Position numbers and translations under genes: made by a program
Shown: positions 8,463 through 58,047 of the stretch, one piece after another
How the letters are laid out: each line of letters begins with the position of its first letter
Position numbering within the stretch: position 1 is the stretch's first letter
The notes under the pieces: generated by a model
Told to the model about the DNA's origin: nothing
What the model saw: the letters and a program-made list of their open reading frames with translations, nothing else
Database searches by the model: none
Source of the DNA: an uncultured Candidatus Saccharibacteria bacterium
GTDB lineage: Bacteria; Patescibacteriota; Saccharimonadia; Saccharimonadales; JBBQAJ01
Direction of reading: 5' to 3'
DNA: 64,000 nt
Assembly (NCBI GenBank): GCA_964597925.1
Contig: CAZQZT010000002.1
Location: forward strand, 103,038-167,037

Positions 8463-9050
8463 TTATATAGAAAGGCTGTTTGCCGTCAATTTGAACCGTG
8501 CCTCTAGGGCTTCAAAATCTTCTATCTTTGCCTGCATAGACAGATAGAAGGCTTGGTTTTCATCCTTTAAAACAATGTATAGATCTTGGTGTGCTACCTT
8601 GCCGTCTGTACGAATATAAGTAAAAGATACACGTGCCGCCTGCTTGCCTGACTGGTTAAATTTTTCTTCTGACAGTTTTTTATAGTCCGGATAGCGGTCT
8701 GGTAATACCTTGTCGGTATTGGCCAGTAAAAGATCCATGGTACTGGTTTTTGCCAGCTGAGAAGGCAGTCGAAGTCCTTCTTCGTAACGAAGAGTTATGA
8801 GGTAGGGTGTTTGACCTTCACTGTTGGCTCTAAAGAGAAATTTATCTTCGCTGTCTTGCGTGGTAAGGGTTAGTTGCTTTGCTTCGGCTGGATAGGAAAG
8901 CTTGACTCCCTGCTTGTTGTCTTGGAATTGCTGTAGTGTAGCTGAGCCGTTTGAAGGCGTTTCAGGCGCCTTGGCTAATCTAACCAAGACTAACCAAAGA
9001 ACTAATGCTAAAACCAGTAAAAAAGCTCCTACGATTCCCACACGACGCAT
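8463..9050 (-). CDS. membrane-anchored extracytoplasmic protein, unknown function
   Basis: N-terminal anchor MRRVGIVGAFLLVLALVLWLVLV, then a ~160-aa alpha/beta-looking domain. Lies directly downstream of the giant ORF on the same strand. Confidence 0.6.
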   Translation of the reverse strand: MRRVGIVGAFLLVLALVLWLVLVRLAKAPETPSNGSATLQQFQDNKQGVKLSYPAEAKQLTLTTQDSEDKFLFRANSEGQTPYLITLRYEEGLRLPSQLAKTSTMDLLLANTDKVLPDRYPDYKKLSEEKFNQSGKQAARVSFTYIRTDGKVAHQDLYIVLKDENQAFYLSMQAKIEDFEALEARFKLTANSLSI

Positions 9051-9126: not shown

Positions 9127-12100
9127 TTAGTTGTTTGAGCTGGAGAGGGTTATCCAGCGATCGGACATGTAGATTAGGGTTATTGAATCGTTTGGACCTA
9201 GGGTAATGTTTGCACCACCAGGTAACTGAACCACCCCTGCTGAGTTGGTTATGGTAAAGGTATCATTTGTAGCATCTTGTTCGTTGTTTACTATGATAAG
9301 CATGTCACCATCTTTGGCGCTGGCTTCAGATATTGAAAGGTCTGGCACACCGCCGTTGCCAGTTTCGTCTGCATCCACGCGTACATAGCTGGCAGTTGGT
9401 GCCAGCGTATCGTTAGCTGTGCCGTCGTCTGTTAGATTAAGCGCTTGAACGCCTAGGCCGAGGCGATCTTCGATGAACAGGCTCGCCCCAGTACCAGTCA
9501 GCTCTACGCGGTCATCTGTTAATTCGTCATAGCCAAGGTATGCATCTTGATCTATTCCAAGCACCAAGCCAAGGCCATCGCCTAGATATATTGCATCTAG
9601 TTCGTATGCTGCTGAACCAAGAGTTATGCCTTCGGCTGTGCTTGGCAAAATATCTCCACTACTGGTAATACCGACTACTGCAACTATCTTTCCGGAGGCA
9701 TTTACTTGGAAAGCGTCCGCCGTACCTGCGAATAAGGTTCCAGATACATCTAGGTTGCCGGCTATGTTGGTGTTGTCCTGCAGGTTTATGGTGGTGCTGG
9801 CGTTGATGTTTAGCGTGGTTGTACTGGTTATATTTCCGCCATTGACGGCCAAATCGCCCGATAGCGTCGCAATAGCACCGGTGAAATTGTCACTCCCAAT
9901 ATCTATTGCGCCAAAACCATTACTGATTGAGCCGGCATTCAGAACGCCCGTACCAGTGATGGCTGTCGCTACCCCGTCATTGGTGTCGACCAGTGCAACA
10001 TCATGATTGTTCAGCAGACCTAGTTCAGTTGCATTGAGTGTCATACCCATGATGTCAAAGATATTTGTGTAACCCCCTGTTATACCGCTATTCGTAACAG
10101 TTAGAACACTTGAAATTGCCGTGCCAGTTTCTGCGTTATCAACCTCAATTACGTTATCTAGGCCTTGGTTGTGAGCGGAACTATTAATCTGTCTGATATA
10201 GATACCTCGAGTATTAGCATTGTTAGCAGTTGGTGTGGTATCTATGGCAATAATACCCAACGCGCTCGTACCAGTTGTTGTGTCGATATCGATGTTTTCG
10301 GTTGCGGCAAAGACATAATTCACCGTTGTACCAAAATTGATGGCAGTCGCGTTAGTTGCGCCGATATTTATGCTACCCACGGTACCACTAGCAGTCCCAA
10401 CATCTATGTTTATGTTACCCGAGTTACCGGATCCTCCGCCACTGGCGTTGCCACTCTTCAGTGTTAGATTAGCTGAGCTGATATTGGTCGTTTGGTTAAG
10501 GGTCTGTATGGTTTTGGTGCCGTCACTGAAACCAGCGGTACTGCCGAGGTTGATCGTAGACGTAGCATTGGCCCCAAGGTTGATTGTGGTGGCTGCGCCA
10601 AAGGCGTTTATAGTCGTAGAAGTAGTGTTGAACAGAACACCCATAATTTGATTGGTAGCAATAGTGCCGGAGTTAGCGTTGATTTGTCCAGACGTGGTGA
10701 TGACACCCGCGCCGGTAATACTCCACTCTGCGTCATTGAGTATGAGGTTTGAGCCCGAACTTGCCCCAATATTGATACCTAACGGACTATTGATGGTTCC
10801 GATGTTAATAGAACCTGAACTATCAAAGGTATTATCTCCAACATTTATATTTATATCTCCACTGGTCCCACCGGTGCTACCATCACCTGAAAGGAGCGAT
10901 ACGCTACCACCGACACCGCAACCGAAAAAACATGGTGCAATATCACCTTGAATTATGATGCTTTTGCCAGCACCACCGCCACCCTTTATGGTTGCAGTAC
11001 CGCTGCCATAAAAAGTTAGCCCACTGCCATCTAGGGTCGAATTTCCAGCCGTTATTGTAGGTGCATATATTGTCCCAATAGAGTTTATAGAAGTTAGGAC
11101 AGTACCATTTGCGTCCACAACCTCTAGAGCAAAACCAGAAAGTTTTTGTATTGTTAGAGACGCATAACCTACGTCGTCTCCTGTTAAGTATAGGTTTCCG
11201 TTTGATACTGCACCGTATCTCGGTGAAATTGCAACAAGGCCGTTATTTTGCACATAAACTTGTGGGACAGTATCTTTGACCAATTGCGCTCCCCACGCCG
11301 CAACGGTAGTACTACTGTTTGGTAGGATAATTTTTGGTGTGACGGCTGAAACACCCCCAGAGGTATTTTGGGTTACATAAAATCTCTGCCAGGTAGTGGT
11401 AGCAGTAAACGAACTAGCAGTACCTGTTACTGGTGAACCACCCGTGGTGTCGATACGTAAGTTTACGGTTGCTGTGCCACTGTTGGTCTTTACCCAAACA
11501 CTAAAAGTGTAGTTACCAGTTATGGAAGTTGCGTAGGTCTGTGCAAGCGTGCCGTTTATAGAAGTCGAGACCAACTTTTCGGCTGAAGTTTGACCATTTG
11601 GTGCAGGGTTGGAGCCACTATCATCCCCCGTGACAGTTAAGTTTGTAGTTGACCAGAGGGGCGAATCGTCTAGAGACTCACTTTGAGATATGAGGTTACT
11701 ATAAGAACCAAATCCACCGTTCGGCGTGCTTAATGAACCTATCGATTCTTGGTTACCTGCCGCATCAACACCTAATAGTTTTGAACCAAGAGAATTTGTT
11801 AGCTGGAAAAGGTCAGCAGTCTGTGAAGTAGCGCCCTGGATAACACCACCCACACTGCTTGCACTGGCGCTCTGGATTTTGAAGTTAGCGCTACTCTGGG
11901 TACTTGTACCGTTTTGGATATAGCCCGCAGCACCGGTAGATGCGGCGTAGCCACTACAGACGCTACCAGTGCTACATAGTGTGCCTGTTTCATTTGGCAG
12001 TGTCAGCGTGAGGCCTGCGCCAGGAGTAGTTGGTCCCCGTAGTGTAATACCATTTGCGCTACCGCTAGCGTAGAACAGTATTGAGCCAATATTCCCATTG

Positions 12101-15100
12101 GCTGTACCAAGACTGAGGGAATTTGAACCCTGTATAGAAGCTGTTCCTGCGATAGCCAAGCCAGCAAAACTAGGGCTCGCAACAGTATTGATATTTTGTA
12201 TGGTATTGACACTGTAAGCTCCGTTGGGGCCACCATCAGACACATTGAAGTTAGTACCATTAAAGCTCAGTGTACGCTCTGCGCTCAAGCCTGCTTCTGG
12301 CGCAAAAGTGAAATACTCTGCATTCGTCGGTGCATTGCCTCCACCAGAACCAGAACAGTTTTGCAGGGCAAACAGACAAAAATCGTCGGAGGCGCCCGCA
12401 TCAGGGATGGTATAGGTGTAATCGCCTGTTGTAGGAGCTACAACTATCGTAGCCGTATTACTGCTTCCGTCGCTAATTATGAGAGAACCGGCTTGCAGGG
12501 CTGCGCCCAAAGTAGCCGAACCGCCTTGAACAATCAGGCCTACACTAGTGGTTACGTTGACACCGTCATCAGTTAGGGTTGAATCCCCTACAGTTGAACC
12601 AGTAGAGGTGAATTTGGCTATTTGGTTATTGGTGCCAGCGCCAGTTACGCCACCGCCAGAGCCTGCACAGTTACCTAGATTCTCTAGACACAAAGTGTCA
12701 TTACCGCCAGCATCGGGTAATAAAACCGCATAGTTACTTGTTGGTGCTGCAAAATTAAGCGTTGCCGTAAACCCAGCATCTGTAACAGAAAGGCTGCTAG
12801 ACGCATTGCCTTGAATTGTGATGACTTGGCCGGTAGCACCTATAGTAAGAGCACCACTCGGCGTAATGGCCGTAAGAGCAGTCAGAGATGTAATGTCACT
12901 GTTGGCTCCACTTGCGGCAGCAGACAGGTTACTCCTAGCACTCGTAGCGTCAAGTGCACCAGTACCACCGTTCAGCACTGGCAATATACCGGTTACTTCT
13001 GTTGTGAGGTTAATGTCTGTTCCTAGTGTCGTCTGTAGAGCGCCACCAGATATTTGCAGGCCAGTCCCCGTAAGGTCGGTGAAAGCATCACTGTTAAAGG
13101 TAAACGCATCACCTGCTTGGACAGTTAGTCCACCATTGAGACTGGTAAGCCCCGTTACGCTAAATGTACTAGCAGCAGTAGTTGGGCCATTCAGACTAAC
13201 TGCACCCGCACCTGTTCCAAAGGTGCCCGCACCTGTTTGAATGAAGCTGCTGGTTACGGTGGTTGCGCCATCCAAACTGACTGCACCCGTACCTGTGCTA
13301 AACGTGTTTGTACCTGTCTGATTGAAATCAGCGTTCAAAGTCACATCGCCGTTTAGTGTCGTGTTCCCCGTGCCGGTAGTGAAAGTGCCTGAACCCGTTT
13401 GAATGAAGTCCGTGTTATTTAGTAGATTTAAGATACGGCTTGTGCTGTCAACTGCTACTAAGCTCGTTCCGGCTGCGTTGGTAACGTTGAGCGCCTGCGT
13501 ATTATCTGTCCAAGTGCGAATGACAACATTGTCGCTACGAATATTAATATCTCCATCTGTTCCAGTGCCGTCTCGTCGGCCAGTTTCTATATTTAGAGTG
13601 CCCCCATTTCCGTTACCACCGGCTCCTGCGGCACCGCTGAGAAGCGTTAAAGTACCACCCGTACCAGTGCCATTTCCTTCGGCACCCTTAACCCTAAGAA
13701 TCCCCCCGTTGGCGTTCAGGGTAGTTGGCTTCAGCTGGTTTATGGTTCTAGTAATTCCTGAGTTACCACCAAATGATAAATCACCAAACGTCGCGTCACT
13801 AGCGGGCGTGCTGCTGCCTGAGGATACACCTATTTTGCCAGTTACCTGTAGTGCTAAACCGGTATTGGTGCCGTTGTTTATATCTAGCACACCCCCAGTA
13901 AGGGCTGAACTCGAGTTTCTAAAAGTGTAAAGATATTCGCTGTTAGGCACCGCAACAGTAGCCGTGTCTTGAATGATTTTGGATAAATATCTACCGTCGT
14001 TCCCGGTGGAACAAGGCGATGAGTTTGAAGTTGTGCATATGACACCGCTTTCTGTGGGCAGAGTTAGTATATAATTGCCCGTCACACCTGAGCCTATAAG
14101 AGACTGTAGAGTAATACTCCCTCCGCCATCGTACGCGAATTGCAGCTGTCCTAAGTTATCTGTTCCAGAAGTCCCAATGCTACCAATTTGCACTTTATTG
14201 CCTACTGTCTGATGAAGTCGCACATCGTCTACGTAGAAATTCACGCCGCTTGCTTCTGCCGAATTCGTTCTTCGAACGTGAATATTGTGTGAAGGATGGG
14301 TAATATTTGTAGTAAAGCTACAGACAAATTGACTCCATCTTGGCGCCGCGGTGCTACCTTGGGTGGCTTTACTGATCGTACAATCAAGGGCGAACTGTCC
14401 ACCACCCAGTAATTGGTGCCCTATAACTATATCGTTTATGCTTGGAGTACCTACCTCGGCCATAATCCACATCGATAGCACATACGACGAATTTACTTGT
14501 GTGATGACTGGTATGGTTGCGCCATCTCCTGTGTTATTTGTAGTGGTAACTCTCATGGAACGCGAACCAGTGTGTACGTATTGAACATCTGAATTTGTAT
14601 TAATATCTGGCGTACCTGCTTGTGCTGGGTACTCTTGGGTCACCCAGCTAACTGGATCTACCCCCGGTGTGTCGGACTCAAATGTTCCATTGTTTATTAG
14701 GTTTGTGTACGTGTCGTATACGGTACTGACATTGAGTACCGAATTGCTGGCGGAATTTTGCACTTGGAAGACATTGGTTGAGTCTACTGTGCTTCTGAAC
14801 AATCCGTTACCAAAAGCTGAGAGGTTGCCTGCAACTGAAATAGTATTGCCCGACTGCGTAAGCAGAGAATCCCCTATCACGTCTGCGCTCGTGAACATTG
14901 GAATGGTTCCTGGTGTACCACCAGCTGTGGTTACACTAGAACCAGCACCTGATGACTCATCATTGGTACACAAAACCTGACCGAGGTTGTTGGTAGTCAG
15001 CGAGCCGCCATTTAGGAAAACCGTACAGTTGATGGGCAGCGTAAGCGTGCCGCCGATGTTAAGGTTGCCGCTCAAAGTGGCGCTGGCAAACGTTGGCGAG

Positions 15101-15852
15101 CTGGTTATGCCAATGTCTTGTGGAGTAGAAAGTGTGATAACTCCGTTACTATTGGTAACGATTATTTGATTCCCTGTACCTTGTAGGGTAATTCCGCCAA
15201 TCATGCCGTTGAGTAAGCTTGAGGCCGGTACATCATCTGGCTGGTTGATGAGACCAACGACCGCAGCAAGATCTTCGTTGGTCACGAGGTCACAGTTGTT
15301 GGTGCTCAAACAAAAAGTGCCCGAAGCATTCGGAAGTGTGTAGGTTTGGTTAGCCGTTAGAGTTTCTGTACTTAGGGTTCCTGCGAAACCGCTGTTTACA
15401 ACCTTCAGGCTACCGCTTGTAATAATGTCTCCATTTACAAAAAGTGAGCTTTTTGCACCCTTTATCTCCGCCGGTAAATCTGCAATCTCTGCATCTTTTA
15501 GAGATAGGTCTTGAGTTTGAATAACTGATTGACCATTTTGCTGGGCTTTGGGTGCTTTGCGAGCCAAAATAAGTATACTTGCCCCTGTAAATAGTGTCAC
15601 TACGAGCGCTATGGCTATAGAAACTATCACAGCTTTACGGTGAGAAAATGGCAGGAGTTTAGCGTGAGGAGTGTATTGGCTTGCCTGTGCTGCAGTACCT
15701 TGCTCATGAACTTCGAGATCTTCAATGGGATAGTTCTTTTGCGGCAAACCGTACTGGGCTACGAACGGCTGAGTCGTAGTTGACGCGGCCTTAACCGAAG
15801 TTACAGTATCGGGATTATTAGAATTATCAGCTTTGAGCTGAGAGTTATCCAT
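9127..15852 (-). CDS. giant (2,241 aa) single-pass membrane-anchored fibrous surface protein; putative adhesin / host-recognition fibre
   Basis: Uninterrupted 6.7-kb ORF. About 73 aa of N-terminus, then one TM (AVIVSIAIALVVTLFTGASILILA), then a T/S/G/N/A-rich ectodomain with internal repeats, two jelly-roll/CBM-like modules and tail-fibre-like motifs. All antisense ORFs in the track are short composition artefacts. Confidence 0.85.
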   Translation of the reverse strand: MDNSQLKADNSNNPDTVTSVKAASTTTQPFVAQYGLPQKNYPIEDLEVHEQGTAAQASQYTPHAKLLPFSHRKAVIVSIAIALVVTLFTGASILILARKAPKAQQNGQSVIQTQDLSLKDAEIADLPAEIKGAKSSLFVNGDIITSGSLKVVNSGFAGTLSTETLTANQTYTLPNASGTFCLSTNNCDLVTNEDLAAVVGLINQPDDVPASSLLNGMIGGITLQGTGNQIIVTNSNGVITLSTPQDIGITSSPTFASATLSGNLNIGGTLTLPINCTVFLNGGSLTTNNLGQVLCTNDESSGAGSSVTTAGGTPGTIPMFTSADVIGDSLLTQSGNTISVAGNLSAFGNGLFRSTVDSTNVFQVQNSASNSVLNVSTVYDTYTNLINNGTFESDTPGVDPVSWVTQEYPAQAGTPDINTNSDVQYVHTGSRSMRVTTTNNTGDGATIPVITQVNSSYVLSMWIMAEVGTPSINDIVIGHQLLGGGQFALDCTISKATQGSTAAPRWSQFVCSFTTNITHPSHNIHVRRTNSAEASGVNFYVDDVRLHQTVGNKVQIGSIGTSGTDNLGQLQFAYDGGGSITLQSLIGSGVTGNYILTLPTESGVICTTSNSSPCSTGNDGRYLSKIIQDTATVAVPNSEYLYTFRNSSSALTGGVLDINNGTNTGLALQVTGKIGVSSGSSTPASDATFGDLSFGGNSGITRTINQLKPTTLNANGGILRVKGAEGNGTGTGGTLTLLSGAAGAGGNGNGGTLNIETGRRDGTGTDGDINIRSDNVVIRTWTDNTQALNVTNAAGTSLVAVDSTSRILNLLNNTDFIQTGSGTFTTGTGNTTLNGDVTLNADFNQTGTNTFSTGTGAVSLDGATTVTSSFIQTGAGTFGTGAGAVSLNGPTTAASTFSVTGLTSLNGGLTVQAGDAFTFNSDAFTDLTGTGLQISGGALQTTLGTDINLTTEVTGILPVLNGGTGALDATSARSNLSAAASGANSDITSLTALTAITPSGALTIGATGQVITIQGNASSSLSVTDAGFTATLNFAAPTSNYAVLLPDAGGNDTLCLENLGNCAGSGGGVTGAGTNNQIAKFTSTGSTVGDSTLTDDGVNVTTSVGLIVQGGSATLGAALQAGSLIISDGSSNTATIVVAPTTGDYTYTIPDAGASDDFCLFALQNCSGSGGGNAPTNAEYFTFAPEAGLSAERTLSFNGTNFNVSDGGPNGAYSVNTIQNINTVASPSFAGLAIAGTASIQGSNSLSLGTANGNIGSILFYASGSANGITLRGPTTPGAGLTLTLPNETGTLCSTGSVCSGYAASTGAAGYIQNGTSTQSSANFKIQSASASSVGGVIQGATSQTADLFQLTNSLGSKLLGVDAAGNQESIGSLSTPNGGFGSYSNLISQSESLDDSPLWSTTNLTVTGDDSGSNPAPNGQTSAEKLVSTSINGTLAQTYATSITGNYTFSVWVKTNSGTATVNLRIDTTGGSPVTGTASSFTATTTWQRFYVTQNTSGGVSAVTPKIILPNSSTTVAAWGAQLVKDTVPQVYVQNNGLVAISPRYGAVSNGNLYLTGDDVGYASLTIQKLSGFALEVVDANGTVLTSINSIGTIYAPTITAGNSTLDGSGLTFYGSGTATIKGGGGAGKSIIIQGDIAPCFFGCGVGGSVSLLSGDGSTGGTSGDININVGDNTFDSSGSINIGTINSPLGINIGASSGSNLILNDAEWSITGAGVITTSGQINANSGTIATNQIMGVLFNTTSTTINAFGAATTINLGANATSTINLGSTAGFSDGTKTIQTLNQTTNISSANLTLKSGNASGGGSGNSGNINIDVGTASGTVGSINIGATNATAINFGTTVNYVFAATENIDIDTTTGTSALGIIAIDTTPTANNANTRGIYIRQINSSAHNQGLDNVIEVDNAETGTAISSVLTVTNSGITGGYTNIFDIMGMTLNATELGLLNNHDVALVDTNDGVATAITGTGVLNAGSISNGFGAIDIGSDNFTGAIATLSGDLAVNGGNITSTTTLNINASTTINLQDNTNIAGNLDVSGTLFAGTADAFQVNASGKIVAVVGITSSGDILPSTAEGITLGSAAYELDAIYLGDGLGLVLGIDQDAYLGYDELTDDRVELTGTGASLFIEDRLGLGVQALNLTDDGTANDTLAPTASYVRVDADETGNGGVPDLSISEASAKDGDMLIIVNNEQDATNDTFTITNSAGVVQLPGGANITLGPNDSITLIYMSDRWITLSSSNN

Positions 15853-16043: not shown

Positions 16044-16865
16044 TTAGACCCATAGAATCGCATAGACGGCAGCCAAGCCAACCAACATAACAGCCAGAGC
16101 AATGAAGACAACTCTGATCATTTCAGCCCTTATAATTTTGCGCGCTAGCGGGTTGCGCCCTAGCGCAGTCATGGCACTAGATATGGCGCCGTAAATAATT
16201 GCACCTTCAGCAATTAGTACTATTACAAAAATAATCAGTGCAATCAGTACGCGTGCTTCGCCCACGTCTTTGCCAACTATGGTGCGTCCTAGACGTGCTA
16301 GCGCTGAATCACTTTCTGTGCCGGCATTTGCGCTTCCCTGTTGATTGAGATTTAGGGTGACTTTAGCGATTTGAGTTTGTTTGGTTTGACCTGCGTCTGT
16401 GTAGTTATACGGTGACGGATTTGACGGAGCATCCCCAGCAACACCAATAACCGTAGCCGCAAGCTCACTTGATTTCATGAGTATTCCTTTGAGCGGAGAA
16501 AGTACCAGCAAGTCCCCCCTTGCAACACCTCCGTTTATGTCGCTCACATAAGCTTGAACCTGACCCTCGCTTTCTACTAACACATTCGATGATTCGGATC
16601 CAACAGTAACAAAACTATTTTCTACAGTTGTAACAACTCCAACCACTCTGGTGCTGGAATCTTGAGTAGCACGCTCTACCCCTGAATCAGTTGAACCGTC
16701 AGCACTAAGCGCAACTACCATCCCCGTCTGAAGACCGCTGTCGATGGTAGTGTAGCCGCGAGCAATTGCCAAGACAGAAGCCTGAAATAATAAAAGTGCC
16801 ATCAGTGACAAGCCAGCAATTAGGCCCCCGAACAGTTTGATATTTCGTACTTCTCTTCGTCTCAT
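16044..16865 (-). CDS. secreted/membrane protein with a C-terminal two-helix membrane hairpin, unknown function
   Basis: I place the start at the ATG at 16865 (MRRREVRNIKLFGGLIAGLSLMALLLFQASVLA, a signal-like sequence). Central ~170-aa soluble domain. C-terminal hairpin ...LIAEGAIIYGAISSAMTALGRNPLARKIIRAEMIRVVFIALAVMLVGLAAVYAILWV. Confidence 0.6.
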   Translation of the reverse strand: MRRREVRNIKLFGGLIAGLSLMALLLFQASVLAIARGYTTIDSGLQTGMVVALSADGSTDSGVERATQDSSTRVVGVVTTVENSFVTVGSESSNVLVESEGQVQAYVSDINGGVARGDLLVLSPLKGILMKSSELAATVIGVAGDAPSNPSPYNYTDAGQTKQTQIAKVTLNLNQQGSANAGTESDSALARLGRTIVGKDVGEARVLIALIIFVIVLIAEGAIIYGAISSAMTALGRNPLARKIIRAEMIRVVFIALAVMLVGLAAVYAILWV

Positions 16866-16989
16866 GCCAGCCATTATCGTTATGTTTGTTGCTAGTATGA
16901 CGGCATTTACTCCGTAAAACAAGCGTTTAGCATTTAAAAACACCTTAGCGCAAATCAACCATACAATAGTGCTTAAGGTGAACTAGATT

Positions 16990-39731: not shown

Positions 39732-39737
39732 TATAAT

Positions 39738-39850
39738 TTGGCACCGTGCTATTTTCCCAGGGTTAAAACCCAAGTATTGTAACCGCTGCGAGGCTTAACT
39801 GCTGTGTTCGGCATGGGAACAGGTGTTTCCCTCGCGCCATGGGCACCAAA
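39738..39850 (-). rRNA. rrf: 5S rRNA
   Basis: Reverse complement reads UUUGGUGCCCAUGGCGCGAGGGAAACACCUGUUCCCAUGCCGAACACAGCAGUUAAGC...GGGAAAAUAGCACGGUGCCAAA. Confidence 0.93.
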
Positions 39851-40070
39851 TTCTGCGTCTCGATGGCGCAGAATTTGGTATTCTACACCTTAGGCGCTCG
39901 TTTGATGCTCAGGCTTATACCATATGTGATATAGAGCTAAATTAGCTTAATACCATCTATGATATATTGCACGTGATTTTGAGATTTTAAGGTAAACGGG
40001 TGGTGATTTAGAACCACCAATAACTAGTCAATGCACTTACTCAGAGAAGGCTCGCGCCTTGTCTGAGTTC

Positions 40071-43295
<3,225 letters not shown>

Positions 43296-43540
43296 CGATA
43301 TTGTGCATCGACTAGTTATTGGTAATTCCAATTTCTTTGCCGTTTGCCTTATCGAACGATTACATACGTTCCATTACGTACATAACCGTATCTATTCTCA
43401 AAATTTGAATCTAATTGTTAAGTTACAAAACTCAAGGAGGCCCAAATACATTACTGTCCTAACCCTGATAACTTGAGTTTATGCTGAAAGTCTGCAGGTC
43501 AATCCTTACAACTTCGTGCTTAAACTCAAGTAGTTGCAAT

Positions 43541-43569
43541 ATCTTATCACCAATAACAGGGGCGGTCAA
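43541..43569 (-). promoter_or_regulatory. candidate sigma-70-type promoter for 23S-5S
   Basis: Minus strand: TTGACC (43564-43569), 17 nt, TAAGAT (43541-43546). About 240 nt upstream of the 23S 5' end. Confidence 0.4.
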
Positions 43570-43658
43570 GCATATTCTGATGTCAAACTTGCTACGCTTT
43601 TACAGTTTAGAAGGAACTAATAAGTACCTAAACTAGCGTAGCAAGTTCTCTGTTATGC

Positions 43659-45401
43659 TTATTTTGTAGTTAGAACGACTAAATTTGAAGCAACTGACTT
43701 GTTGTTGCTTGTATCGACAGCCTGGATGTAATAGGTGTATTTAGTCTTGCGGGCAACGTTTGTATCTGTATATGTCAGACTCGTAGTCTTGGCATAGAGG
43801 ATGCCGTTTCGATATACCCAGTATTCTTTTACGGCTACGTTATCTTTGCTAGCGGTCCAGGTAAGCTTTGGCTTACCGTTCTGTAATCCTCCAGATAGTA
43901 CTGATGCTGTTGGAGCAGTAGTGTCAGTCGGAGACGTAAGTGTACCTAGCGCACGATTCAAGTTTGGCAGAGGACCAATGTTGCCACTCAACGTACCAGC
44001 GCTGGTGTTTTGCAAAGTTCCGGTTTGAATCAAAGTGCTGCGTATTTGTGCAGGAGTCAGTAGTTTACCTGGGTTGAGCGTTTTATATGCAGAGCTTAGC
44101 GATGCTATCGCTGAAGCTACAATTGGAGCAGCCGAACTTGTGCCATTGAAGTTTGATGTATATGCACCATTTGGTGTGGTACCTGCTTCTAATGCACCAT
44201 AACCAGCCGTTGTTACACATTCTCCATGACCTTGTAGTTCAACACGTGATCCATAATTGCTAAAGTACAATCGAGCATTTAGCGGTGCGGCACAAGCAGA
44301 ACCCGCGCCAGCAATCACTGAACCAGAGCTAACTTTGCCCATAGGAAACGTTGTGCCCCATACAGCAGTATCGTCTAGGTTATGACCGCTGTTAGCTGCT
44401 GCCTGTACAACGTTTATGCCGCTATCTGTCAGTGCTTTTATGGCGTCATATATAGCTGGCTCCCATTCAACCGGTGCATAGCCGCCTACGCTTGATGGAG
44501 CCCATGTTTGCTGTTCAATAAGCACTACGTCGCCAGGTACAGCTCGAGTAGCAGCAGTCTGCAGTGCACCCACTATATCCCAGCCACGTTCTTGATTGTA
44601 GGTATTAACTCGTGACAATGCCGCCCCACTAACTGCGCCAGTTACGCCCGTGCTATTATCTGTAGCAACTATCTCGCCCAACACTGCCGTACCGTGGTTG
44701 GAGTCATTAAAAGGATCTGCCGGAGTTCCGTTATTTAGATTGCTACCGACGGCTTTTGCTAAATCTTCATGACTAGCGTTCCAGCTGTATTCTAGATCAA
44801 TTACACGAACCGCACTACCGTTTCCGCCAGGAATAGTTTTGGCATAGGCAGAGTCAATCCCATAGGGGCTGGCGTTTAGGTATTTCTGCAAACTAGTGTA
44901 GTTGTTTACAGTAGGAGCTGGAGCGGGCTTGGATTGTGGATATACAGTTTCCACGCTGTCCAATAATGCAATCTTACCGACAAGTGCTTGTATGTTGTCA
45001 CTTGGCTTAACTTTAACTACAAAATAGTCGTCAAGATTACTGGCTAGTTTCTTACTATAAGCAGTTTCTGGTTCGCTACTTTGACCCACTAGTTTTTCTA
45101 GCTTTTGCTTGCCGGCATCATTTAGAACCTTGTTTAGGTTGCTGGCTTTGGCTTGAGACTTGGTGGTTTTTGGTTTGAAGTTGCTGGACTGGTCTATTTC
45201 CAGCTGCGCGGTATCTTTTAGCTTAACTATCAGACTATCATTGCGATATTTCTGACTGTCAGAATAATCATTGTTTGGACTTGAACCAGCGCCAACAGCG
45301 CTACCGGAACCGAACAGATTAGTAGCGACCAATAGTGTTGCCAGAAACGTCGATAGAACAGATACCGGAACTTTACCAAAACGTGTATTTCGTAACTTCA
45401 A
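43659..45401 (-). CDS. secreted subtilisin-family (S8) serine protease with propeptide-like N-region and C-terminal FN3-like domain
   Basis: Signal peptide (MKLRNTRFGKVPVSVLSTFLATLLVATNLFG). Catalytic D (VRVIDLEYSW), H (SNHGTAVLGEIVA), N (AAANSGHN), S (NGTSSAAPIVAS). C-terminal beta-sandwich (KPKLTWTASKDNVAVKEYWVYRNG...YTYYIQAVDTSNN). TTG start with SD GGUGAGG. Confidence 0.9.
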   Translation of the reverse strand: MKLRNTRFGKVPVSVLSTFLATLLVATNLFGSGSAVGAGSSPNNDYSDSQKYRNDSLIVKLKDTAQLEIDQSSNFKPKTTKSQAKASNLNKVLNDAGKQKLEKLVGQSSEPETAYSKKLASNLDDYFVVKVKPSDNIQALVGKIALLDSVETVYPQSKPAPAPTVNNYTSLQKYLNASPYGIDSAYAKTIPGGNGSAVRVIDLEYSWNASHEDLAKAVGSNLNNGTPADPFNDSNHGTAVLGEIVATDNSTGVTGAVSGAALSRVNTYNQERGWDIVGALQTAATRAVPGDVVLIEQQTWAPSSVGGYAPVEWEPAIYDAIKALTDSGINVVQAAANSGHNLDDTAVWGTTFPMGKVSSGSVIAGAGSACAAPLNARLYFSNYGSRVELQGHGECVTTAGYGALEAGTTPNGAYTSNFNGTSSAAPIVASAIASLSSAYKTLNPGKLLTPAQIRSTLIQTGTLQNTSAGTLSGNIGPLPNLNRALGTLTSPTDTTAPTASVLSGGLQNGKPKLTWTASKDNVAVKEYWVYRNGILYAKTTSLTYTDTNVARKTKYTYYIQAVDTSNNKSVASNLVVLTTK

Positions 45402-45427
45402 ATCAAATACCTCACCTTTACAGCGCC

Positions 45428-45456
45428 ATTATACCACCTACTATTGAATTTGTCAA
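45428..45456 (-). promoter_or_regulatory. perfect consensus sigma-70 promoter of the protease gene
   Basis: Minus strand: TTGACA (45451-45456), 17 nt, TATAAT (45428-45433). About 27 nt upstream of the TTG start. Confidence 0.75.
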
Positions 45457-45473
45457 CTACTACGTTTTGTGTC

Positions 45474-45501
45474 TATAAAAAACCCACCTTTCGGTGGATT
45501 C
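45474..45501 (-). terminator. rho-independent terminator directly after tRNA-Ala
   Basis: Minus strand: AAUCCACC-GAAA-GGUGGGUU followed by UUUUUAUAG. Confidence 0.7.
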
Positions 45502-45507
45502 TTTATT

Positions 45508-45584
45508 TGGTGGAGCAACAGGGACTCGAACCCTGGACCCCCTACTTGCAAAGCAGGTGCTCTAGCCAACTGAGCTATTGCCCC
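45508..45584 (-). tRNA. tRNA-Ala (UGC), CCA encoded
   Basis: Reverse complement: GGGGCAATAGCTCAGTTGGCTAGAGCACCTGCTTTGCAAGTAGGGGGTCCAGGGTTCGAGTCCCTGTTGCTCCACCA. G3:U70 present. Confidence 0.95.
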
Positions 45585-45661
45585 AAAGTGTATTTTCCAT
45601 AGGAGACTCAAGTCTCCTTAGAAAACATTATACTTTTGCTTCGCAAAAGTGAAATGTATTC

Positions 45662-45738
45662 TGGTGGGCGATGAGGGACTCGAACCTCCGACCTCGTCAT
45701 TATCAGTGACGCGCTCTAACCAGCTGAGCTAATCGCCC
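45662..45738 (-). tRNA. tRNA-Ile (GAU), CCA encoded
   Basis: Reverse complement: GGGCGATTAGCTCAGCTGGTTAGAGCGCGTCACTGATAATGACGAGGTCGGAGGTTCGAGTCCCTCATCGCCCACCA. Confidence 0.95.
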
Positions 45739-45980
45739 CTACTTGAACTGGGCTATTGTACCCGATTTCCCTCTGTTAAACAACTGGCCCATAAAAAGAG
45801 CGCCTCTCGCAGGGGCGCCCTTATTGTTAAAAACATATATAGTGCAATCAACGTCAGGTCGGTTCAAAACTGGTATCTCGTCCTCTTGCGAGGAAAAGTA
45901 GATTATCAGTTTTGACAATAATCTACCAAGATCGACCTAGCTCGCACAGGATTGCTCCGCATGCTGCTAGTTTTCTCCCT

Positions 45981-47531
<1,551 letters not shown>

Positions 47532-47705
47532 AAAGTAGAATATGATCATGAAACAGTCGAACATGTAATTCTCGAAAGAACTACACTGACTTAATTTTCA
47601 AAAAACAATTCAAATGAACTGACGTTGATTTGCACTATATAAGTTTTTAACGAACTGACTTTTCTAGAGACACCTTAACAAGAACTCCGAAAAGACGTAA
47701 GGGCT

Positions 47706-53039: not shown

Positions 53040-54635
53040 ATGTTCAAAAAACTTCTCAGCAACCTCCCCTTCAACCCCAGTCTTATGGGACAGGTTTCTT
53101 TCTATGCCCAGCGCATGAAAAAGGAATCAGCCATCAGGCGCATGGGACTGTTTTTTATCGTCCTAGCTATGGGCGTACAGTTAATGGCTACTATCTCACC
53201 TGCCCAGGCATCACTCGAAGGCTCAACAAATGACATAGTATATGCCGGTTTCAATTCTGCTGCTGACGCTGCTGCAAAATGCAACAACAACGTCCAAAAC
53301 TTCCGAACCATCCTAGAGTATTATGGTCTGGACTGTACGCTTGTGGGCAGTGGAGTAACAACAACAATATCATCATCGGATACAAACCTAGACTCGCTCG
53401 GTCGCAATCAGCCATCAGCAGTCAGCCCAAGAAATGGCAATCCATCTGGCCTTTACAACGTAGACATACCAGGAGCGGGCCGTCTTTATATGAAAAACCT
53501 TTCATATTGGGATAGTTATGGACCTTCCACCTATCAAGTACTTAGAGTAACCAATAAAATCGATGGCCGCACATTGTGGATTATGTATAGCTGCGGCAAC
53601 ATCGTAACTGCTTCACCATTCCTGCCACCACCGCCACCACCGCCACCGCCACCACCGCCACCACCAGTGCTACCCAAGGTAATTAGTTGCTCAAATCTAG
53701 TGATGAACGTTGCCAACAAATCTAGAATAAAACTTGGCAGCAAAGTAACCGTACGCGGGCAAGCAGCCGGCAAAAACTTTGCAACATCTTCTCCGTACGT
53801 AAGCATGCAGTATGACCTTGTAAACGCAACAACCAACAAAGTAATATCTACCAAGAAAACAGACAGAGTGCCGTTCAATGGCAGTATTGCTAATGATCCA
53901 AATACCTACGACTTCTCTAGCGATACAGCCGGTCCTTATTTCATACGGCTAATCGTAAAATATGATTCTACGAAAACGGCGTCTGGTAGCGCCGATGGGG
54001 ACTGTCTCAAAAACATCACTGTTGATAAACCCTGCCAAGATGTAAAAACTACTGAAGATCTAGAACTATGCTTACTGCTACATAAGAAAGCCAAAAACGT
54101 AACTCAAAACATAGTTGATGCCAACGGCACTACTGCTCAGGCTGGTGACGTTATCGAATACACACTATCGGTTACTAACGAAGGTCAGGTTACGGTACCT
54201 GATTTCATAATAAAAGAAAACATGAATGATGTATTAGAATACGCCAATATAACAGACCTGCATGGTGGACAGCTAGACAAAGACGGCTACATATTTTGGC
54301 CAACGGTAGATGTACAACCAAAACAGACCATCCAAAAACTTATCACTGTAAAAGTGAAAAACCCCATACCAGCCACGCCAATTTCTGCATCAGACCCCGG
54401 CTCTTTCAACCTCATGATGACTAACGTCTACGGTGACAGCATAGACATTAAACTGCCTGGCAATATCGTAAAACAAGTAGAAACAGTGACCACTCTGCCC
54501 AACACCGGCCCCGGCGAAAGCCTAGCTGCTGGCTTTACTATAACCGTGATCGCCGGTTACTTCTTTGCCAGGAGCAAACTATTTGCCACTGAACTAGATA
54601 TAGTGCGTCGAGATTTTAGCCATGGAGGTAGCTAG
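53040..54635 (+). CDS. cell-surface protein with poly-proline spacer, DUF11-like repeat domain and LPXTG-type sortase signal
   Basis: N-terminal anchor/signal (RRMGLFFIVLAMGVQLMATISPAQA); 14 consecutive Pro codons (53625-53666); AQAGDVIEYTLSVTNEGQVTV (DUF11-like); C-terminal LPNTGPGES plus a TM and a basic tail. Confidence 0.75.
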   Translation: MFKKLLSNLPFNPSLMGQVSFYAQRMKKESAIRRMGLFFIVLAMGVQLMATISPAQASLEGSTNDIVYAGFNSAADAAAKCNNNVQNFRTILEYYGLDCTLVGSGVTTTISSSDTNLDSLGRNQPSAVSPRNGNPSGLYNVDIPGAGRLYMKNLSYWDSYGPSTYQVLRVTNKIDGRTLWIMYSCGNIVTASPFLPPPPPPPPPPPPPPVLPKVISCSNLVMNVANKSRIKLGSKVTVRGQAAGKNFATSSPYVSMQYDLVNATTNKVISTKKTDRVPFNGSIANDPNTYDFSSDTAGPYFIRLIVKYDSTKTASGSADGDCLKNITVDKPCQDVKTTEDLELCLLLHKKAKNVTQNIVDANGTTAQAGDVIEYTLSVTNEGQVTVPDFIIKENMNDVLEYANITDLHGGQLDKDGYIFWPTVDVQPKQTIQKLITVKVKNPIPATPISASDPGSFNLMMTNVYGDSIDIKLPGNIVKQVETVTTLPNTGPGESLAAGFTITVIAGYFFARSKLFATELDIVRRDFSHGGS

Positions 54636-55233: not shown

Positions 55234-58047
55234 TTACTTTGGCTGTAAATTGCCGTCACGATCTATTACTATTGTATCTGCTTCGGAGTTTTCGCTAGAA
55301 TCTGCTGTGCGGAGCTTTAGTTCACCTTCAATATTTGCATCTGTTTTGGTTGAGTTATTAATAATGTTTTGCTGAGTTTTAAGGTTCTGTGTAGGTGCAT
55401 ATGTAGGAGCGGGATTCTTGGGTGAACCCATGTCATTGGTTGCTGAAGTAGGGCTGGCAGTTTTTCGTTTGGCTAGCCATTCGTCAAGAAAAGAAGAGCC
55501 GCTACTAGCTGGTTTTGGCGCCGAACCAAGCGCTCCAGCGCCAGTGGGACTGGCTCCAAACGCACCAGGAGCGGGTTTTCCAAAAGCTGGTTTTGGTACT
55601 TCTATGGTTTTCATTCGCTTAGTGATCTCTTCGTCCACGATCGCCCGCGGTCTGCCAAATTTTGCTGCCGAAAGTTGCCTAAGCGCTTGTTCAAGCCTTG
55701 GATTCGGCGTACCAAGAGCCGGCAAAGCCGCCATACTAAAAGGCTGCGTCGGCACACCGTTTATGAGCGTACGTACAACTGCGTTAAAGTTTGGGACACG
55801 GAGAATGTCATCTGCCTCAAAAATAGGCTTGAAATAGCGCGACAATGCCTCCACGTCGTTTTGTCCCACGCGGAACGATACTATAGTACCCATGTTCCCA
55901 AATACTGCATCACGAATCTCTTCGGATAGCTGCGTCGTAAACTGGTTGGCCACTATCAAGTTCAGGTGATATTTACGAGCTTCAGACATAATTGTCGCAA
56001 ACGAATCAGTAGAAAAGTTTTGGAATTCATCCACATACAGACAAAAATCAGGCCGTTCAGACTCTTCCACGTTCGCCCTACTCATAGCCGCAGCCTGAAA
56101 TTTCATCACAAAAATCATACCCAACAGTTTGGCATTTAACTCGCCTGTACGGCCTTTGCTCAGGTTTACTAGCAAGATTTTTTTGTTATCCATGATGTCG
56201 CGTAGGTCAAATGCACTCTTGGTCTGGCCAATTATGTTTCGCATCATGCTGTTCGACAAAAACGCGCCAAACTTACTAACAAACCAGCTCACCACCTCAC
56301 CGAATTCATTAGAACGTTGCGACTGAGGCATTTCTTTTTGCCAAAATTCCAACACTGTTGGATCAGTAACATATTTGAGTTTTTGCTTTACAAATTCTGG
56401 ATCCCTAAACAATTTGGGAATATCGATAAAACTACCACCCTGCGGGTCGGCCATAACCGTCAATGCGGCATTGCGAAAAAGGTGTTCGTAGCGCGGACCA
56501 ATAATTCCCTGGTGTTGCGGATCATAAAGTTTATAAAGCATATTTATAGCCTCTTGGATCAAAAAGTCTTTCTGATCGGCAGTATCAGCTTCGAAAAGGT
56601 TCAAACCGAGTGGGTAGTCGGTTTCTGCTGGACAGAAGTATATAACGTCTTCTGTGCGCTCTCTAGGCACCATCCCAAGTAGTCGCTCTGCAGTGTCGCC
56701 GTGTGGATCTATAAATGCGAAGCCATTGCCATTCAGCATGTCCTGCAAAGCCATATTTTCCAAAAACCACGATTTACCCACACCAGTCTGGCCCACAACA
56801 TACATATGCCTGCGCCGATCTTCATCTGCCAGTCGCACGGCTTTTTTGGCACCCCTAAAGATGTTATAGCCCATTAGCAAGCCTTCATCCGGCATATTCC
56901 GCGGACCATCAACCTGCTTACTAGCCTGACGTTCCAACTGACTTGTCGGTATGTTTTTCTGATCTGGAAAGTGAAACAGCGTAGACAGTTCTACAGTATT
57001 TAATACATTTTGGTTATTTTCCTGGGGGAAAAACCGGAGTATATACGCCGTTACAAACCGCTCTATGTCCTTTGCGGAAGTGTACTGAAAACCATTCCTG
57101 CCAGGTGCATCAAACAACGCAAAAGTAGCTACTACATTATTCAAAATAGCTTGTGCCCTATGCGATATGTTAGAAGATGCCACCACTCGAATCAGCACTT
57201 CGTAGCCAGCATGGCGAGTTTTATCATCTATAGCATCCAGTGTTGTCTGGTCTAGGGAGGATAAATCATGCTTGCCACCACCATTACTGCTTTTATCTTC
57301 TGGTGGTTTCACTGCCGCGCTAAACAACTGCTTCAGCCACCAAAAAGCTAAATCACCACCCTTTTTACTCTGATGGCCTTTACGTTTTTTATTGGCTATT
57401 GCCTGTGCATGCTTGCGCCATCCGCTCGCTGCCGGCCGCAACATTATCTGCACGCCCGCCCCATCGTCTTTCTCTAGTGTTGAGAGTGCATTTAAAAGAG
57501 ACTGTATGGCGTCACGCTTTAGGTCTTGAAATGTAGCAATCGGGTAAGCAAAGGGTTCCTTAAGTGTCAATTCGCCTCCCATAGTACCGCTTATTTTGCC
57601 CACGGGACTAAATATATTGTGTTCCGCTACTTCCTCTAAACGTGCAGTTGGATAAGCGCTAACTATGGCTTGGCGTACTACATCAACTAATGCCACCGGC
57701 ACAGCCGCATAAAAGCTCACAAAACCCCTAGAGCCAACTATCTCAAATGCAATGTGCCGCTGACCATAAAAACGACTCTTGAAGCCCTTTTGCATCGTAC
57801 TGGCAATAATGTCGTACATGATTTGGGCTTTAGATATGTTTTCTTCGTTTACATCTCTTTCATCTCTATTACTACCCTCTACATCCTCGCTAAGTGGTGG
57901 CAAATGTATGAGTAATGGAACCATTTTGAGCCCACGTTCAAAATTTTTCTGTTCTCTGAATATCTTGCGTACCTGAAAAAACACAATTGGCCCAACTATC
58001 AGCAACAGTACCAGGATGAAACCAAGTGCGGTCAGTAAAATACTCAT
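55234..58047 (-). CDS. membrane-anchored P-loop ATPase of the TraD/VirD4 coupling-protein / HerA-FtsK superfamily
   Basis: N-terminal TM (ILLTALGFILVLLLIVGPIVFF). Walker A HMYVVGQTGVGKSWF followed by FAFIDPHGD. Walker B CLYVDEFQNF, then ARKYHLNLIVANQFTTQL. About 130 aa of A/G/P/S-rich low-complexity C-terminus. Confidence 0.7.
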   Translation of the reverse strand: MSILLTALGFILVLLLIVGPIVFFQVRKIFREQKNFERGLKMVPLLIHLPPLSEDVEGSNRDERDVNEENISKAQIMYDIIASTMQKGFKSRFYGQRHIAFEIVGSRGFVSFYAAVPVALVDVVRQAIVSAYPTARLEEVAEHNIFSPVGKISGTMGGELTLKEPFAYPIATFQDLKRDAIQSLLNALSTLEKDDGAGVQIMLRPAASGWRKHAQAIANKKRKGHQSKKGGDLAFWWLKQLFSAAVKPPEDKSSNGGGKHDLSSLDQTTLDAIDDKTRHAGYEVLIRVVASSNISHRAQAILNNVVATFALFDAPGRNGFQYTSAKDIERFVTAYILRFFPQENNQNVLNTVELSTLFHFPDQKNIPTSQLERQASKQVDGPRNMPDEGLLMGYNIFRGAKKAVRLADEDRRRHMYVVGQTGVGKSWFLENMALQDMLNGNGFAFIDPHGDTAERLLGMVPRERTEDVIYFCPAETDYPLGLNLFEADTADQKDFLIQEAINMLYKLYDPQHQGIIGPRYEHLFRNAALTVMADPQGGSFIDIPKLFRDPEFVKQKLKYVTDPTVLEFWQKEMPQSQRSNEFGEVVSWFVSKFGAFLSNSMMRNIIGQTKSAFDLRDIMDNKKILLVNLSKGRTGELNAKLLGMIFVMKFQAAAMSRANVEESERPDFCLYVDEFQNFSTDSFATIMSEARKYHLNLIVANQFTTQLSEEIRDAVFGNMGTIVSFRVGQNDVEALSRYFKPIFEADDILRVPNFNAVVRTLINGVPTQPFSMAALPALGTPNPRLEQALRQLSAAKFGRPRAIVDEEITKRMKTIEVPKPAFGKPAPGAFGASPTGAGALGSAPKPASSGSSFLDEWLAKRKTASPTSATNDMGSPKNPAPTYAPTQNLKTQQNIINNSTKTDANIEGELKLRTADSSENSEADTIVIDRDGNLQPK

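Follow-up and report, generated by a model that had tools for sequence, protein, structure and literature searches.

A phage tail-fibre repeat unit in a giant, putatively membrane-anchored protein of a Saccharimonadales bacterium

How a peptide that reads like part of a phage tail fibre comes to reside in a chromosomal gene of a bacterium, and what it may do there, is the question raised by a 64,000-nucleotide stretch of DNA (hereafter the window, numbered from its first nucleotide) from an uncultured Candidatus Saccharibacteria bacterium of the Saccharimonadales (contig CAZQZT010000002.1, positions 103,038 to 167,037). A single open reading frame (ORF) of 2,241 codons on its minus strand (9127-15852), termed here the giant gene, encodes a protein bearing the peptide EVTGILPVLNGGTGALDATSARSNLSAAASGANSDITSLTALTAITP at residues 952-998 (minus strand, 12859-12999). 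An original prediction, made from the letters of the DNA, had placed this peptide at 12880-13000 and at about residue 950-1000 of the product, which is essentially right, although the low end fell 21 nucleotides short and the strand was not stated; it likened the peptide to motifs of phage side and tail fibre proteins. We report that the peptide is, as judged from its sequence, genuinely homologous to a tail-fibre repeat, beyond any chance likeness of low-complexity proteins, and that its carrier is a cellular protein on a Saccharimonadales chromosome. On balance, and with some confidence, we favour the view that the giant protein serves this bacterium as a mosaic fibre or adhesin at its surface, anchored in the membrane and probably trimeric, analogous to the mosaic adhesive trimer (MAT) fibres of Bdellovibrio.

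Homology of the peptide to a tail-fibre repeat

Threonine, glycine, serine, alanine and asparagine together make up 55% of the giant protein, a composition that makes a chance match in low-complexity sequence a real possibility, and this was therefore tested directly. An alignment (A1) of 16 copies of the module, gathered from the giant protein's own family, has the consensus ..FTGxLxVxxGGTGAxTAxGARTNLGAAASGANSDITSLxGLTTALSVxQGGTG, and all 12 of its invariant columns (G-G-T-(G)...A(R)...L...A...N.DI.S...L) are present, in register, in the window copy. A profile of the 15 other copies scores the window copy at 72.5 bits, whereas 2,000 shuffles of the whole protein, matched in composition, gave at best 11.4 bits with the same profile. 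Searched alone, the 47-residue peptide matches phrog_11393, "tail fiber protein" (E=2.8e-11), and tail-fibre families account for seven of its ten PHROG matches. The A1 profile, compared with all PDB sequences, retrieves tail fibre gp47 of Pectobacterium phage PhiM1 (8VBX; E=1.4e-17), tail fibre gp12 of E. coli phage SU10 (7Z47; E=7e-17) and R1/R2 pyocin fibres (E=3.5e-4 to 0.017), and BLASTP with composition adjustment aligns the window segment to the PhiM1 tail fibre with 28 identities in 45 positions (62%; E=1e-12). With several comparisons at E-values of 1e-11 to 1e-17 and no shuffle approaching the observed score, we regard the probability of a chance match as negligible. The result that could be quoted for it is a low-complexity-filtered tblastn search of the window segment against GenBank phages, in which all matches (to mycobacteriophage minor tail proteins) had E-values of at least 0.1; the module consensus was needed as the query.

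With the consensus so used, 166 GenBank phage records contain a match at 80-96% identity, and the annotated features under the matches listed are mostly tail fibres; the carriers include kuraviruses, HK022/mEp lambdoids, PhiM1-like and KP34-like podophages and Pseudomonas phages. IMG/VR yielded at least 245 confirmed stretches with 60-79% identity to the window copy and the same elements in the same order, and over a 33-residue core one viral contig is identical at 29 positions (88%). Seven of ten IMG/VR carrier ORFs tested match PHROGs annotated as tail fibre, three of the seven with strong matches that come from C-terminal domains having no relation to the motif. When 5.8 billion proteins were searched with the A1 profile, "phage tail protein" was the sole functional name among the named matches, the others, including one of a Patescibacteria group bacterium, being "hypothetical protein". 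The predicted likeness to tail-fibre motifs is thus borne out, with phage fibre proteins clearly enriched among the matches, and the predicted pattern, (L/I)P(V/I)xNGGTG followed by AR.NLG and GANSDITSL.GL, agrees with the computed GGTGAxtAxxARtNLgAAaSGANSDITSLtGLT of cellular and viral copies alike.

Rather than a free-standing signature, the motif proved to be one unit of a 40-residue repeat, GGTG-x6-ARxNLGAAxSGANSDITSLxGLTTxLSxxQ. Many phage and metagenomic proteins contain from two to 22 units in tandem, and long perfect tandem arrays occur in other proteins (P0110, P0118 and P0136): P0118 (480 residues) has five to six near-perfect units and P0110 (2,114 residues) 22 matched stretches, in both cases in tandem with a 40-residue period. 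An exhaustive search of 1.84 billion cluster representatives with a hidden Markov model of the repeat retrieved 7,835 proteins at E<=1e-3, of which 2,445 pass E<=1e-10, numbers that count clusters at 50% identity; the top 150 carriers are mostly of phage-fibre size (300-1,300 residues), with a minority above 2,000 residues. No Pfam model (E<=10) or NCBIfam model (E<=1) detects the repeat, and literature searches for the motif as a text string found no paper quoting it. A repeat spread over about 7,800 clusters and occurring in hundreds of phage genomes is without a Pfam or NCBIfam model or a full-unit structure, and a curated model would improve the annotation of tail fibres and flag fibre-like proteins in cellular genomes.

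The similarity to viral fibres extends past the peptide. When the whole protein was compared by tblastn with 84 phage and viral loci, selected as fibre loci by the motif itself, every one of 81 high-scoring segment pairs fell inside residues 849-1050 (about 200 residues; minus strand, 12703-13308); similarity reaches a length of about 125 residues at 44-49% identity, the longest pairs spanning residues 869-994 at 44%. No other part of the protein resembles that set of loci in sequence. Independent arrival of a Gly/Thr/Ser/Ala-rich fibrous protein at the same short motif could appeal to the biased composition and to whole-protein searches, which returned no Pfam, NCBIfam, PHROG or PDB sequence match. 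Those scans were blind to the motif, which came to light only in searches with the segment by itself, an effect probably of the HMMER bias filter acting on such a composition; and convergence is very improbable in the face of a core up to 88% identical to a viral copy, identical cellular and viral consensus sequences, a similarity running over some 125 residues, and shuffles that never exceeded 11.4 bits. Of the phage origin or convergence that the original prediction had allowed for, shared ancestry is favoured on the evidence of these sequences. The direction implied by "from phage" does not follow: when 25 cellular cores and 90 viral ones (33 residues only, the viral set pre-selected for similarity to the window copy) are compared by nearest neighbour, the two are interleaved by identity, and neither G+C content nor its value at third codon positions (GC3) along the giant gene marks a foreign island at the motif, so that neither direction nor recency of transfer can be called.

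A cellular gene family at a conserved locus

The giant protein belongs to a family of 51 proteins of 1,500-3,900 residues. Its aligned members have the first ~300 residues in common, including a single transmembrane helix and a YPxExLEVH motif that precedes it, and beyond that point homologues diverge into Beta_helix/NosD, CBM_4_9, Peptidase_S74, Kelch and YadA-head modules. The whole protein found no relative among GTDB representative genomes. Peptidase_S74 is an intramolecular chaperone and protease of phage tail fibres and endosialidases; homologues P0012, P0018 and P0023 end in it, as does the S74 subgroup of Bdellovibrio MAT fibres.

The original prediction had taken the gene for a cellular one, and its surroundings agree. 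Also encoded in the window are an rRNA operon, RNase P RNA, FtsZ/FtsA, ParA/ParB, GyrA/GyrB, IF-2, S1, isoleucyl-tRNA synthetase (IleRS), a class II ribonucleotide reductase (RNR) and PriA, and its GyrA is up to 88% identical to that of Candidatus Saccharibacteria/Saccharimonadales metagenome-assembled genomes (MAGs). The order IleRS, ribosomal protein L21, a 275-residue membrane protein and the giant gene recurs on the contigs of homologues P0003 and P0010; on that of P0022, RNR replaces IleRS and the remaining order is kept. In the window the membrane protein of this series (275/276 residues; minus strand, 16044-16874) lies directly upstream of the giant gene, is syntenic in the four genomes, and has a signal or transmembrane segment, an ectodomain of about 180 residues, two C-terminal transmembrane helices and the motif AEGxIIYGAxSSAxTxLGRNP. 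Directly downstream, a 195-residue, N-terminally anchored protein (minus strand, 8463-9050) is conserved beside the P0022 gene, and hence in at least two genomes. These two conserved neighbours may be partners in assembly or anchoring of the giant protein.

Three separate phage- or gene transfer agent (GTA)-fibre-like regions in one ORF could suggest that the giant gene is the tail-fibre gene of a prophage, tailocin or GTA lodged in the chromosome. We consider this highly improbable. The flanking genes are housekeeping ones (ParA/ParB, L21, IleRS, RNR and FtsZ), and no phage structural, integrase or lysis genes occur among the flanking ORFs scanned; the gene order is kept in four MAGs; GC3 is unremarkable; and N-terminal slices of the protein have no PHROG match and no tail-docking domain, the N-terminus being instead the 73-residue region and transmembrane helix of a cellular family, not a baseplate-attachment domain.

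Three GenBank MAG records are titled Candidatus Limnocylindria, Limnocylindrales and Sulfotelmatobacter (L055, L064 and L079) and encode a Saccharibacteria-type GyrA about 81% identical to that of the window; the homologue P0022 is likewise named Limnocylindria. All of these contigs are probably mis-binned.

Domain layout and proposed function of the giant protein

From its N-terminus the protein begins with a presumably cytoplasmic region (residues 1-73; minus strand, 15634-15852). The family motif YPxExLEVH lies within it (residues 41-49; 15706-15732), with P42, L46 and E47 as invariant columns of the family alignment A2; the motif may act as a signal for sorting or secretion, or as a site for docking on the cytoplasmic side. 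The single predicted transmembrane helix, AVIVSIAIALVVTLFTGASILILA, occupies residues 74-97 (minus strand, 15562-15633), where the Kyte-Doolittle average over 19 residues peaks at 2.58 (residues 79-97), against 1.42 for the next best segment of the protein; by sequence it is likely an uncleaved signal-anchor. A conserved proximal ectodomain follows (about residues 98-330; minus strand, 14863-15561), with 36-47% identity to family members whose distal parts differ. All 16 cysteines of the protein lie after the helix, in eight close pairs (C-x3-20-C) between residues 181 and 1645 (about 10918-15312), an arrangement that fits an extracytoplasmic location; the pairs probably form local disulfide-stapled loops. 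Several of them sit in a recurring module, hhLP(N/D)xxGTxC...NC, that ends fibre segments.

Beyond the conserved part lies a candidate jelly-roll or CBM-like domain (residues 383-518; minus strand, 14299-14706), with a weak match to phrog_1775 (E=1.5e-4) and homologues that carry PF02018 CBM_4_9. Two further regions resemble fibre domains of phages or GTAs. At about residues 1385-1510 (minus strand, 11323-11700), a profile (A5) retrieves from the PDB the head-spike fibre Rcc01080 of the Rhodobacter GTA (6tb9; E=3.7e-4); family members of this domain match tail-protein PHROGs, and the region itself has a weak CBM_4_9_1/BppA match (E=0.058). The putative distal tip is a C-terminal beta-sandwich (about residues 2130-2241; minus strand, 9130-9465), confidently predicted (pLDDT, the predicted local distance difference test, 75-93) in an AlphaFold2 model of residues 2030-2241. 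Phage proteins of tailspikes, tail fibres, baseplates or capsid spikes make up all of the top 13 Foldseek matches of this model in the PDB (best E=5e-6), among them CBA120 TSP4, an Acinetobacter phage tailspike, the Pa223 capsid spike, KP1 baseplate proteins and 6O38 ("Structure of a chaperone-substrate complex"; 109 columns, root-mean-square deviation 4.1 Å, 24% identity), which we take to be the tail fibre of phage Mu bound to the chaperone of its assembly; BFVD adds 176 matches at E<=1e-3. An equation of the tip with the C-terminal domain of the tandem-repeat protein P0118 was considered and dropped, as hhalign found no similarity between them.

For the repeat unit itself, partial structural guidance comes from the pyocins. 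In the R1/R2 pyocin fibre fragments its first half (26 residues, profile positions 6-31) finds its counterpart at chain positions 251-277, which by the published construct boundaries (323-691 and 323-701) are residues of about 570-595. The match falls towards the C-terminal end of the Shaft domain (529-598), an interdigitated homotrimer of "helix-plus-turn" motifs situated directly before the distal lectin-like domain (PMC6116203). Other relatives are trimeric as well: PhiM1 gp47 (PMC11440229) and SU10 gp12, in which only residues 1-90 are modelled and the motif region is unresolved (PMC9509320). By analogy with these relatives, the window protein is probably trimeric. The only helix in an AlphaFold2 monomer of residues 860-1060 is a short one at DATSARSNLSAA (residues 969-980; minus strand, 12913-12948; pLDDT 65-72), and this predicted helix is compatible with a unit made of a turn and a short helix.

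The sequence shows the homology of the module, the cellular context, the single hydrophobic helix, the paired cysteines, the predicted fold of the tip and the mosaicism of the family; that the protein trimerises, is displayed outside the cell and acts in adhesion, and what it binds, belong to the interpretation that follows. The N-terminal helix would hold the protein in the cytoplasmic membrane with some 2,140 residues outside the cell, and the ectodomain would be a mosaic of fibre modules like those of phage receptor-binding proteins. The 40-residue unit would form part of an intertwined homotrimeric shaft, as a tight glycine-rich turn followed by a short helix, keeping the three chains in register while joining the proximal segment (about residues 850-950) to the next module (about residues 1000-1060). 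Two jelly-roll or lectin-like domains and the C-terminal beta-sandwich would bind a ligand, most plausibly a surface glycan of the bacterium to which the epibiont attaches; a cultivated Saccharibacterium cannot grow epibiotically without multiple adhesins (PMC10633639). The polarity would be that of a tail fibre, with the N-terminus on the carrier and the C-terminus distal. Across the family the proximal 300 residues and the chromosomal locus are conserved and the distal modules shuffled, a pattern also seen in phage receptor-binding proteins and MAT fibres. The homology of the module, on the strength of its sequence, is solid; its function in this protein is our interpretation.

A number of observations weigh against this picture. 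Tandem repetition is absent: only one unit of the repeat occurs in the window protein, and only one in the whole window. Solved structures cover the first half of the unit, leaving the GANSDITSL half uncovered, and the monomer model of residues 860-1060 is of low confidence (pLDDT 61), an uninformative outcome that is expected for an interdigitated trimer. Residues 860-1060 contain no histidine, and the HxH iron site of the pyocin Shaft is lacking. Outside the motif, the assignments of domains are weak, including the PDB profile match at 3.7e-4: the C-terminal slice reaches 23.1 bits with PF25692 Phage_depo_C (E=1e-4), below the 25-bit cut-off, and the Foldseek template modelling (TM) scores of the tip are 0.34-0.41, with only about 110 residues aligning. 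Lastly, the organism is known from MAGs only, and the lifestyle assumed for it is that of cultivated relatives.

The same domains admit another reading, which we hold to be unlikely: a surface structure that is no adhesin, either an envelope or surface-layer (S-layer)-like scaffold or a fibre-mounted spike of the depolymerase type, used in feeding or in piercing the host capsule. Homologues carry Beta_helix/NosD, which is typical of tailspike depolymerases; the Pfam family nearest to the C-terminal domain is a depolymerase C-terminal beta-sandwich; tailspike depolymerases are among the top structural matches; and stretches rich in glycine, asparagine and threonine (about residues 640-870 and 1560-1900) could be beta-helical. 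The window protein, however, has no Beta_helix/NosD match, whether searched whole or in slices, no catalytic domain was found in it and no SLH or other S-layer domain detected, and an N-terminal transmembrane helix is not the usual anchor of S-layer proteins. A membrane-anchored mosaic adhesin remains the reading we prefer.

Elsewhere in the window, the rRNA operon (minus strand, 39736-47533) has a 580-residue Peptidase_S8 (subtilase) ORF at 43659-45401, between tRNA-Ala and 23S, and the 23S match spans 3,226 nucleotides against a model of 2,925, which suggests some 300 nucleotides of inserted sequence. Two further ORFs are of envelope type: one of 937 residues with an N-terminal transmembrane helix and no Pfam match (minus strand, 55234-58047), and a DUF11-repeat protein of 531 residues (plus strand, 53040-54635).

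Comparison with known fibres and implications for host attachment

Closest by the repeat unit are phage fibres of the PHROG 11393 type (PhiM1 gp47, 8VBX chain R; SU10 gp12, 7Z47 chain D; HK022/mEp Stf-like proteins; and that of Pseudomonas phage Bitten), which have the same 40-residue unit and share with the window copy the invariants GGTG, AR.NL and AA.SG.N.DI.S.L. In phage fibres and window protein alike the unit is internal to the chain and further distal domains follow. The carriers differ: those of phages are virion proteins of 150-1,500 residues that dock on the tail by their N-terminus, whereas that of the window is a chromosomally encoded protein of 2,241 residues with a putative transmembrane anchor. 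The pyocin Shaft (6CL5, 6CL6, 6CT8; Buth et al. 2018, PMC6116203) agrees only with the first half of the unit (hLPhxxGGxGxxxAAGARxxhGA), has GGLG or GGVG in place of GGTG, and is without GANSDITSL. The GTA head-spike fibre Rcc01080 (6TB9) aligns by its residues 86-230 to the profile of about residues 1385-1510, a weak likeness in sequence only and in a different carrier.

The nearest cellular parallel is provided by the MAT fibres of Bdellovibrio bacteriovorus, phage-tail-fibre-like trimers with swappable adhesive tips on the surface of the predator (Caulton et al. 2024, PMC10769870). Both are cellular, phage-fibre-like and encoded by a bacterium living on bacteria, and both combine a conserved N-terminal part with variable distal tips, those of the window family being presumably displayed at the surface. 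They differ in build: MATs have about 900-1,200 residues, a cleaved signal peptide, a beta-rich N-domain of about 130 residues and a beta-prism trimer, and belong to a diderm, while the window protein has 2,241 residues and a likely transmembrane anchor and belongs to the Candidate Phyla Radiation (CPR). Trimer state and binding are established for MATs, and presumed for the window protein. A phmmer comparison of the whole protein with all PDB chains, which include MAT fragments though not the MAT N-domain, returned nothing at E<=1. Trimeric autotransporters of the YadA family embody the same concept of a fibrous adhesin, long and trimeric, whose stalk and head are modular, and homologue P0012 has a YadA-head repeat match, but the window protein has no YadA domain match. 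Autotransporters are anchored in the outer membrane by a C-terminal beta-barrel, in contrast to the N-terminal transmembrane helix and predicted soluble C-terminal beta-sandwich of the window protein, and no Pfam match to a C-terminal YadA-type anchor was found in the whole protein or its slices. The window protein is thus not a MAT member by sequence, nor a trimeric autotransporter, nor, by its context, a virion protein.

How CPR bacteria, and Saccharibacteria among them, recognise and hold their hosts is largely open; the known players in attachment are type IV pili and a few glycan-binding adhesins (PMC10633639, PMC11623550). A giant protein family with a putative transmembrane anchor at a conserved rplU-adjacent locus would offer a concrete candidate for determinants of host specificity. 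We suggest tentatively, as a possibility rather than an expectation, that this distally hypervariable fibre at a conserved locus is a host-range determinant of Saccharimonadales epibionts that draws on the pool of phage receptor-binding modules. If so, the 40-residue repeat would serve as a joint for both recombination and registration, alongside jelly-roll domains and S74 or depolymerase tips; there would be a parallel to the MAT fibres of Bdellovibrio in a different phylum, with different anchoring. Genetically tractable Saccharibacteria now exist, which makes the idea testable. Were it true, an ultrasmall parasitic bacterium would recognise its bacterial host by swappable fibre tips in the style of a virus.

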